Below, one piece after another: positions 16,549 to 17,478 of a stretch of 64,000 nucleotides of DNA; positions within the stretch are counted from its first letter, which is position 1; each line of letters starts with the position of its first letter. Under the pieces are notes generated by a model. That model ran no database searches, was not told the DNA's origin, and saw only the letters and a program-made list of their open reading frames with translations. The translations under genes were made by a program, and so were the position numbers. Source of the DNA: Methanobacteriota archaeon (GTDB lineage Archaea; Thermoplasmatota; E2; DHVEG-1); NCBI GenBank assembly GCA_963769885.1, contig CAVYNH010000004.1, positions 75,904-139,903 on the forward strand, in the 5' to 3' direction.

Positions 16549-17478
16549 TCACAATTCTTCAGGAAGTTCGGTGAACCCTCTGTAATTGAGTTGCTGTAGC
16601 CAGTCTTCTTTGTTCACCCCCAGTTTATAGAGTGCCTTGATTGATTCCCTAACAATAGATCGTAGTGCTAATAAGTCACCGTCCGTAATATTGCTAGTGC
16701 CTGTATGTACCAACTTTGACCTTTTTCGGTACAACTCTCTTACCTCTTTATGGATCACGCTTGATGGTTTTTCCTTGCCTCCTAATAGAGTCGCGACATT
16801 ACGAGAAATCCTATACTGTAGTTCGCCCTCATCAGTTGGATGGAAGAGAGTTTCTAATGCCATCATCAAGGAAAGGAAGGAGAGGTGCTTTGTCTCCACC
16901 CTGAATGTAATTTCATAGTTCTCGTGTGCTAACTCCAAGGCAGGATTCTGGAAGGGTAGTTTTGTTGTTGTAAGGAACTCATTCAATCCCGCAAGTTCCT
17001 GAGTATTAAGAGAGTACCTTTCATGAGTAAAAGGAGGAATAATTAAGGTTCTAACAAAGACAAATGGTTTATCTTCGGTCATAATATAGAAGCGATATTC
17101 CGGCATACAGATATTGCCTTCCTTGTACAATCTCATTAATTTGAGAGTATCATTTAGATAACCATGTACAAGATTTTTCTCGCAATCATCGAATTCCTGT
17201 GATTGAGGAAATGATATGCCAGGTTCACGAAATCTCATTTCTTCCTTTAATGTCTTAGTAATAAAATAGATTCTTTTTTCTCTAGAATGCATTAGGTATG
17301 TAAGAATCAGTTTCTCATTCATATCTGAATGAGTTGAACCTTCAAGTAATGAGAAAAAATTTATAGCCTTATCAAGCGGAAATGAACCAATCTTGAAGCC
17401 GTACTTTAGTTTGACATTCTTGATTGATGCATCGACATTAGTAAGCAAGCCAAGGAAGTGAGCCTTTACTCTTGTCAT
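16549..17478 (-). CDS. Hypothetical protein with C-terminal HEPN-like Rx4H motif
   Basis: 309-aa track ORF; C-terminal LYRKRSKLVHTG contains R-x4-H; otherwise no recognised domain. HEPN assignment is motif-level only. Confidence 0.45.
   Translation of the reverse strand: MTRVKAHFLGLLTNVDASIKNVKLKYGFKIGSFPLDKAINFFSLLEGSTHSDMNEKLILTYLMHSREKRIYFITKTLKEEMRFREPGISFPQSQEFDDCEKNLVHGYLNDTLKLMRLYKEGNICMPEYRFYIMTEDKPFVFVRTLIIPPFTHERYSLNTQELAGLNEFLTTTKLPFQNPALELAHENYEITFRVETKHLSFLSLMMALETLFHPTDEGELQYRISRNVATLLGGKEKPSSVIHKEVRELYRKRSKLVHTGTSNITDGDLLALRSIVRESIKALYKLGVNKEDWLQQLNYRGFTELPEEL

Follow-up and report, generated by a model that had tools for sequence, protein, structure and literature searches.

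A probable HEPN ribonuclease of an undescribed two-domain family, encoded beside a SIR2-like cassette in a defence island of a DHVEG-1 archaeon

The stretch analysed here, hereafter the window, comprises 64,000 nucleotides (nt) of contig CAVYNH010000004.1 (positions 75,904 to 139,903 of the forward strand, assembly GCA_963769885.1) from an archaeon of the lineage DHVEG-1 within the Thermoplasmatota. A gene on its minus strand encodes a protein of 309 amino acids (aa). The analysis supports its assignment as a true HEPN protein of the RNA-cutting type, and it belongs to a sizeable family that is unnamed in databases. The gene is surrounded by an island of defence and mobile-element genes at 7-21 kb of the window, a helix-turn-helix protein among them, and is followed downstream by a SIR2-like gene. 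The features of the locus are listed below in window coordinates (E, expectation value; GC, G+C content as a fraction).

17600-18100, plus strand: tyrosine-recombinase pseudogene, divergent from the HEPN gene; its 85-aa open reading frame (ORF) at 17692-17949 matches Phage_integrase (E 9e-7)
16549-17478, minus strand: HEPN gene, a complete ATG-to-stop ORF of 309 aa with two domains
17014-17478, minus strand: N-terminal alpha/beta domain, residues 1-155, from the AlphaFold2 model
16579-17004, minus strand: all-helical HEPN domain, residues 159-300, from the AlphaFold2 model
16852-16854, minus strand: E209, candidate auxiliary acidic residue of the HEPN active site (E in 124 of 128 representatives; helix 197-212)
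16705-16722, minus strand: predicted catalytic Rx4H motif RSKLVH, R253-H258, codons read from the sequence
16240-16548, no strand assigned: spacer between the HEPN and SIR2-like genes, 309 nt, GC 0.346
15106-16239, minus strand: SIR2-like gene, 377 aa (Pfam SIR2, E 0.0034; PADLOC SIR2, E 9e-5)
14618-15100, minus strand: gene of 160 aa, 5 nt downstream of the SIR2-like gene, without matches

The extent and length of the HEPN gene given in a first-pass annotation of this DNA agree with the ORF list. The protein had no match in Pfam, NCBIfam, or PADLOC, and PDB sequences, searched with phmmer and with a profile, yielded only noise (E about 0.75-0.9). Its full-length homologues numbered 75, each of about 300 aa. 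A profile search of 1.84 billion cluster representatives retrieved 395 representatives at E<=1e-30, nearly all of them full length at about 300 aa, 1,810 at E<=1e-10, and 8,416 at E<=1e-3. With clusters at 50% identity as the unit of family size, the family includes at least 395. Searched as a single protein, the query found no match in genome contigs; a narrower family alignment (A2) did find loci. The hosts named in the records include Halobacteriota, Methanobacteriaceae, Methanosarcinales, Methanophagales, Bathyarchaeota, Clostridia, Syntrophobacterales, and Phycisphaerae/Sedimentisphaerales, and this patchy spread is a pattern of the kind produced by horizontal transfer. One family member of 497 aa (P0159) carries an additional N-terminal extension of 195 residues without a Pfam match, the family region occupying residues 196-494.

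The AlphaFold2 model built on the family alignment had a predicted local distance difference test score (pLDDT) of 91.2 and a predicted template modelling score (pTM) of 0.90, and consists of two domains. The C-terminal domain contains helices at residues 179-190, 197-212, 220-232, 239-259, 266-286, and 290-300; the R253-H258 motif ends helix 239-259 and is followed by a loop (260-265) and helix 266-286. The four-helix up-down bundle of HEPN domains, in which helices 2 and 3 are often separated by an insert, is recognisable in this arrangement. The structural matches of the protein were HepT toxins (8xdj, 7ae2, 5yep), the HEPN proteins 1wwp, 4nqf, 2hsb, 1jog, and 1ylm, and Las1L, with the Sacsin HEPN domain, the AbiA C-terminal domain, Csx1, and AbiV at lower ranks. 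These HEPN matches are assigned to the C-terminal domain because they were lost when the N-terminal domain was searched alone. Foldseek with the full model against the PDB gave nothing at E<=0.001. Among the profiles, PF18735 (HEPN_RiboL-PSP) was matched by 10 of 34 and 13 of 128 family members (best E 2.4e-6), the inspected alignments covering the motif-bearing helices (for example, residues 196-266 of P0070 against positions 117-187 of the 191 in the profile), and PF18737 (HEPN_MAE_28990) by 4 of the 128 (best E 1.2e-5). The HEPN assignment proposed in the first-pass annotation, to be checked by profile search and structure prediction, is therefore supported by the predicted fold, the conserved Rx4H motif, the structural matches, and the sub-threshold HEPN profile matches. 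The subfamily profiles gave a divided answer, in that members match PF18735 and PF18737 below threshold and the query itself matches neither; the predicted structure does place a HEPN fold (residues 159-300) around the motif, and the outcome named as refuting, a motif outside any four-helix fold, was not seen. HEPN homology of the C-terminal domain is accordingly regarded as highly probable, and the protein is a HEPN superfamily member with an intact catalytic signature, outside every curated HEPN family.

The motif RSKLVH, described earlier as near the C-terminus, is present, and its distance of 52 residues from the C-terminus makes "near" only loosely true. At least one R-x4-H occurs in 46% of residue shuffles of the query protein, which bears out the earlier caveat that an assignment from the short motif alone is fragile; a second R-x4-H in the query (RVETKH at residue 193) is unconserved. 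The motif alone is no better than chance, and its significance comes from its conservation across the family. Conservation was counted in 128 representatives, one per 50%-identity cluster. R253 is kept in 126 and H258 in 125 of them, E209 and R226 in 124 each, and R277 in 127, while the position of E189 is occupied by E or D in 108. A conserved acidic residue in helix 2 has been described for HEPN domains (Anantharaman et al., PMC3710099), and E209 is a candidate for this role by analogy with that description. The residue directly after the motif arginine is polar, S254 being found in 113 of the 128 representatives and C, N, or G in most others; in HEPN domains this residue is mostly N, D, or H (PMC3710099), so that serine is polar and not the commonest choice. 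The predicted active-site signature is complete and strongly conserved: core helix 2 supplies E209, the inserted helix contributes R226/N227, and core helix 3 terminates in R253-S-x3-H258. E209, R253, and H258 form a conserved, putatively catalytic triad-like set.

The N-terminal domain is compact and family-specific and packs tightly against the HEPN domain. Its near-invariant residues are N14, kept in all 126 aligned representatives, and G121; D16/S18 and R116/L117 are well conserved. In its fold, the domain weakly resembles domain I of the ribosomal protein L1 as well as the N-terminal domain of L10/Mrt4. This likeness serves as a lead only, as the domain may be an RNA-binding domain or a generic two-layer alpha/beta sandwich. 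Two known N-terminal partners of HEPN domains were tried and rejected, namely an endoRNase L-PSP domain (YjgF/RidA-like) and a CARF (Rossmann-like) sensor as in Csm6/Csx1; the features of neither were found in this domain.

Comparison with known systems placed the family next to several HEPN groups and within none of them. The most frequent profile match of the C-terminal domain is to RiboL-PSP-HEPN (PF18735), a family described as a distant relative of AbiD/AbiF (Anantharaman et al. 2013). Both are two-domain proteins with HEPN at the C-terminus; unlike RiboL-PSP-HEPN as originally described, the query has no N-terminal endoRNase L-PSP domain. The MAE_28990/MAE_18760-like HEPN family (PF18737) was the second recurrent sub-threshold match, made by few members and not by the query. 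The PADLOC models for single-gene HEPN defence proteins (Abi2/AbiD/AbiF, AbiJ, AbiU2, AbiV, PD-T4-5, PD-T7-3/4, and Gao_Ape) matched neither the query nor the 128 members at E<=0.1, and the scan of these members gave scattered weak matches (DzbB in three, Csx1/Csm6 in two, others in one member each). In contrast to those proteins, the present family is hosted mostly by uncultured anaerobic archaea and bacteria; to our knowledge, no phage-resistance phenotype is known for it. HepT toxins of the HepT/MntA system (type VII toxin-antitoxin) are single-domain proteins of about 130 aa paired with an MNT antitoxin gene, whereas the protein considered here has 309 aa and an extra domain; no neighbour of the MNT or nucleotidyltransferase (NTP-transferase) type was found in the window or in the loci with annotated neighbours. 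A virus-encoded family of unknown function, phrog_28161 (profile of 315 positions), was matched by 33 of 34 members (best E 4.5e-13) collinearly over the HEPN half. This match is confined to about residues 175-277 of the HEPN domain and does not extend to the N-terminal domain. Among conflict-system proteins, HEPN ribonucleases (RNases) with variable fused domains at the N-terminus are a familiar kind (PMC3710099). New here is a sizeable family that escapes recognition by Pfam, NCBIfam, and PADLOC, carries an N-terminal domain not described before, and occurs mainly in uncultured anaerobes.

In total, 62 loci with a family member were collected, 46 of them non-redundant. A BLAST comparison of all neighbours across the loci revealed no partner gene common to the family beyond closely related genomes. 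An integrase-like ORF was present within 4 kb of the HEPN gene in 6 of the 46 loci and within 500 bp in four; a tyrosine recombinase directly adjoins the HEPN gene in the window, as a pseudogene, and in loci L001, L019, and L020. The frame of the window pseudogene runs on through in-frame stop codons, and it is a mobile-element scar. Homology of this pseudogene to the small integrases that lie upstream of the HEPN gene in the loci of its closest relatives was considered and rejected (E 0.15, opposite orientation). The other neighbours of family members include a HigB/HigA-like pair, DUF4160/DUF2442, type I restriction-modification genes, a PLD-helicase, DUF499/DUF1156 with a CARF protein, a type IV secretion system (T4SS) coupling protein (L020), and, in two loci, AlbA_2/Schlafen-like genes. 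A conserved small partner ORF was also sought; the recurrent downstream ORFs proved to be confined to one lineage (L031, L034, L036, and L050), in which the HEPN proteins are 86-91% identical. In that lineage the HEPN gene is followed by an operon of phosphoribosyltransferase-like (VLLLDDVTTTGTSL motif), DprA/SLOG-like, and HAD-like genes, these identities being motifs judged by eye; the three genes were rejected as partners of the family as a whole. An RNA antitoxin or repeat array of the ToxIN type near the window HEPN gene was likewise rejected, as no tandem or ToxI-like repeats were detected and short repeats were at chance level. On the opposite strand of the spacer, an ORF of 71 aa (16332-16547) had no family match; this ORF and a 61-aa upstream ORF, equally without family matches, are probably non-coding.

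The remaining features of the window are the following.

7028-8977, minus strand: defence-type OLD-family nuclease of 649 aa (AAA_15, E 1.6e-41; OLD-like TOPRIM, E 3.8e-15)
9233-13053, plus strand: two overlapping ORFs, an SbcD-like protein (377 aa) and an SMC/AAA-like coiled-coil ATPase (896 aa)
13302-14279, plus strand: IS110-family transposase
19094-20023, minus strand: orphan ORF of 309 aa, GC 0.31, G+C content at third codon positions (GC3) 0.23, with no Pfam, NCBIfam, or PADLOC match
20479-21366, minus strand: IS200-like Y1 transposase remnant, which together with the transposase at 13302-14279 and the pseudogene at 17600-18100 brackets the island
21453-21854 and 21960-22382, minus strand: tandem paralogous small genes (133 and 140 aa) that both contain a module repeated within the gene
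26964-32828 and 42865-45210, minus strand: very long ORFs of 1,954 and 781 aa in segments of GC 0.56-0.60
46917-49014, plus strand: TIR-domain protein (TIR_2, E 3.3e-19) directly preceding a tyrosine integrase of full length (E 1.7e-33)
62522-62642, plus strand: tRNA of 121 nt (Rfam, 50.8 bits), missed by the bacterial mode of ARAGORN

The N-terminus of the SbcD/SMC-like pair weakly matches GajA, AriA, LmuB, and JetC of PADLOC, and the pair could be a defence pair or an Mre11/Rad50-like pair. The composition of the orphan ORF at 19094-20023 is closer to the SIR2 cassette than to the HEPN gene. The 133- and 140-aa paralogues are visibly alike in sequence (MTNVMEEFGKNAGE...GWLARENK...). The segments of the two very long ORFs show strong GC skew and a GC far above the window mean of 0.43. 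The TIR protein and its integrase appear to form a further mobile defence module, and the 121-nt tRNA is consistent with an intron-containing archaeal tRNA. An archaeal origin of the DNA is supported by this tRNA and by the relatives of the HEPN protein in Methanophagales and other archaeal metagenome-assembled genomes.

The position of the HEPN gene raises the possibility that it forms a three-gene system with the SIR2-like and 160-aa genes, one protein acting as the sensor and another as the effector, so that NAD+ depletion and RNA cleavage would be combined. As the first-pass annotation had stated, the SIR2-like gene is on the same strand with the HEPN gene upstream of it, and this common strand and order across a gap of 309 nt speak for such a system. 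The SIR2 label of the neighbour is weak: its own Pfam match falls below the cut-off. Many of its homologues, the closest of which are at most 32% identical over most of the length, carry SIR2_2 (PF13289). For a census, a profile was built from the homologues of the SIR2-like protein, and 31 non-redundant loci had enough downstream sequence. A SIR2-like gene was located directly downstream on the same strand in two of them, the window and L027, the latter being independent of the window:

L027, 1902-2372, plus strand: SIR2_2-like ORF, 258 nt after the HEPN gene (hidden Markov model E 7.7e-21), with GAGFS and TTNWD motifs, truncated at 156 aa

Two occurrences exceed the genome-wide chance prediction; conserved co-occurrence of the kind expected for an obligate partner was nevertheless not found, as 29 of the 31 informative loci have no SIR2-like gene. 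It is also absent downstream in L020, whose HEPN protein is 65% identical to that of L027 (L030, at 71% identity, has 360 bp of downstream sequence and is uninformative). The SIR2-like proteins of the window and L027 belong to different branches, with 46 aa aligning at E 3e-4, and the truncated L027 copy is closest to P0125 (33%). Moreover, SIR2 homologues from three other lineages (P0078, P0125, and P0082) stand alone among housekeeping genes without a HEPN neighbour, and the AlbA_2-like genes likewise recur in two loci, as clustering in defence islands predicts. Neither operon-like organisation nor shared composition was observed in the window: the SIR2 and 160-aa unit is very AT-rich (GC 0.27, GC3 0.20), and GC3 is 0.381 in the HEPN gene, 0.196 in the SIR2-like gene, and 0.199 in the 160-aa gene, which argues for separate origins. 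Because GC3 differs and most relatives do not show the adjacency, the SIR2-like and 160-aa pair is taken as one acquired unit and the HEPN gene as another. It is very likely that the HEPN gene is independent of the SIR2-like gene. Their adjacency reflects defence-island clustering, most likely through separate acquisitions that share one island. The three-gene system is improbable, and the same low probability is given to a facultative association, which the second occurrence keeps alive.

With the cassette set apart, the gene probably constitutes a complete module in its own right, a toxin or an antiviral system, which resides in a defence island of the archaeon and is carried by mobile DNA. 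By analogy with other HEPN RNases, the protein would probably homodimerise with two Rx4H motifs facing each other, and the dimer would probably cut RNA independently of metal, leaving 2',3'-cyclic phosphate ends; an active RNase is considered likely. The N-terminal domain, as an autoinhibitor, sensor, or targeting module, would probably keep the RNase silent or direct it to an RNA target until triggered, the candidate triggers being virus infection, loss of the mobile element, and stress. The outcome may be growth arrest or abortive infection, as with the single-gene systems AbiD, AbiF, and AbiJ. An alternative role as an addiction module of the toxin-antitoxin type, which would stabilise integrative mobile elements and would not be antiviral, overlaps mechanistically with this explanation; the part of its antitoxin would fall to the N-terminal domain, or else to a small RNA or protein that has escaped recognition. 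Toxin-antitoxin systems often employ HEPN toxins (PMC3710099), integrases lie directly upstream of the HEPN gene in L001, L019, and L020, L020 has in addition the T4SS coupling protein, and the integrase pseudogene adjoins the gene in the window. However, no adjacent small ORF is conserved across the loci, neither an MNT gene nor tandem RNA repeats occur near the HEPN gene, and an integrase lies within 4 kb in just the 6 of 46 loci, so that this alternative is judged unlikely. The domain could also be catalytically inactive and act as a binding or regulatory module, as in HEPN-nucleotidyltransferase fusions. Some HEPN families are indeed non-catalytic, and S follows the motif arginine where N, D, or H is usual (PMC3710099); inactive domains, however, typically lose Rx4-6H (PMC3710099), whereas R, H, and E209 are each kept here in at least 97% of the 128 representatives, and the probability of an inactive domain is put lowest of all. 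The L1/L10 likeness of the N-terminal domain leads to two further proposals. In one of them, the protein would process RNA as a housekeeping or ribosome-associated enzyme, much as Las1 does in the maturation of rRNA, and the L1/L10-like domain would dock it on rRNA; this is very unlikely. In the other, the domain would mimic the rRNA-binding domain of L1 (or L10) and dock the HEPN RNase on the ribosome or on a matching structured RNA, which would make the family a group of unrecognised ribosome-targeting suicide RNases, spread by mobile elements in anaerobic archaea and bacteria and with distant viral relatives (phrog_28161); this is a speculative and quite unlikely proposal.

Several observations weigh against the reading of the gene as a stand-alone HEPN RNase with a toxin or defence role. 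The query reaches no Pfam HEPN model, and the inspected members score 13.4-19.9 bits against a cut-off of 28.4 bits. No model of a known defence system in PADLOC (AbiD/F/J/U2/V, PD-T4-5, PD-T7-3/4, Ape, Hhe, PrrC, and RloC) matches it, and a BLAST-level search of IMG/VR viral contigs, GenBank phages, and PLSDB plasmids found no relative. Several family members are situated among housekeeping genes, so that a defence role argued from context is not universal. A SIR2-like gene recurs in L027, where it directly follows the HEPN gene on the same strand with similar spacing, which is more than naive chance would lead one to expect. What is said of RNase activity, dimerisation, toxicity, and a trigger is carried over from the HEPN superfamily. 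Taken as a whole, the description of the protein as a stand-alone, conditional two-domain HEPN RNase that serves as a toxin or defence module and represents an undescribed family is somewhat favoured.

In prokaryotic immunity (Cas13, Csm6, and Abi proteins) and in toxin-antitoxin systems, HEPN RNases act as central effectors, and their superfamily gains here a fairly large family, of the at least 395 clusters counted above, for which there is no curated model. For annotation, the gene should be labelled as a HEPN domain RNase and kept apart from the SIR2-like cassette, and a short R-x4-H motif by itself should be treated as no evidence for HEPN. Many members come from uncultured archaea of the methane cycle and of sediments, and the defence genes of these organisms have been little surveyed. 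Should the N-terminal domain target the RNase to RNA or to the ribosome, or act as a sensor of a new kind, the family would open a new way to study how RNase toxins made of a single protein are held silent and then triggered.
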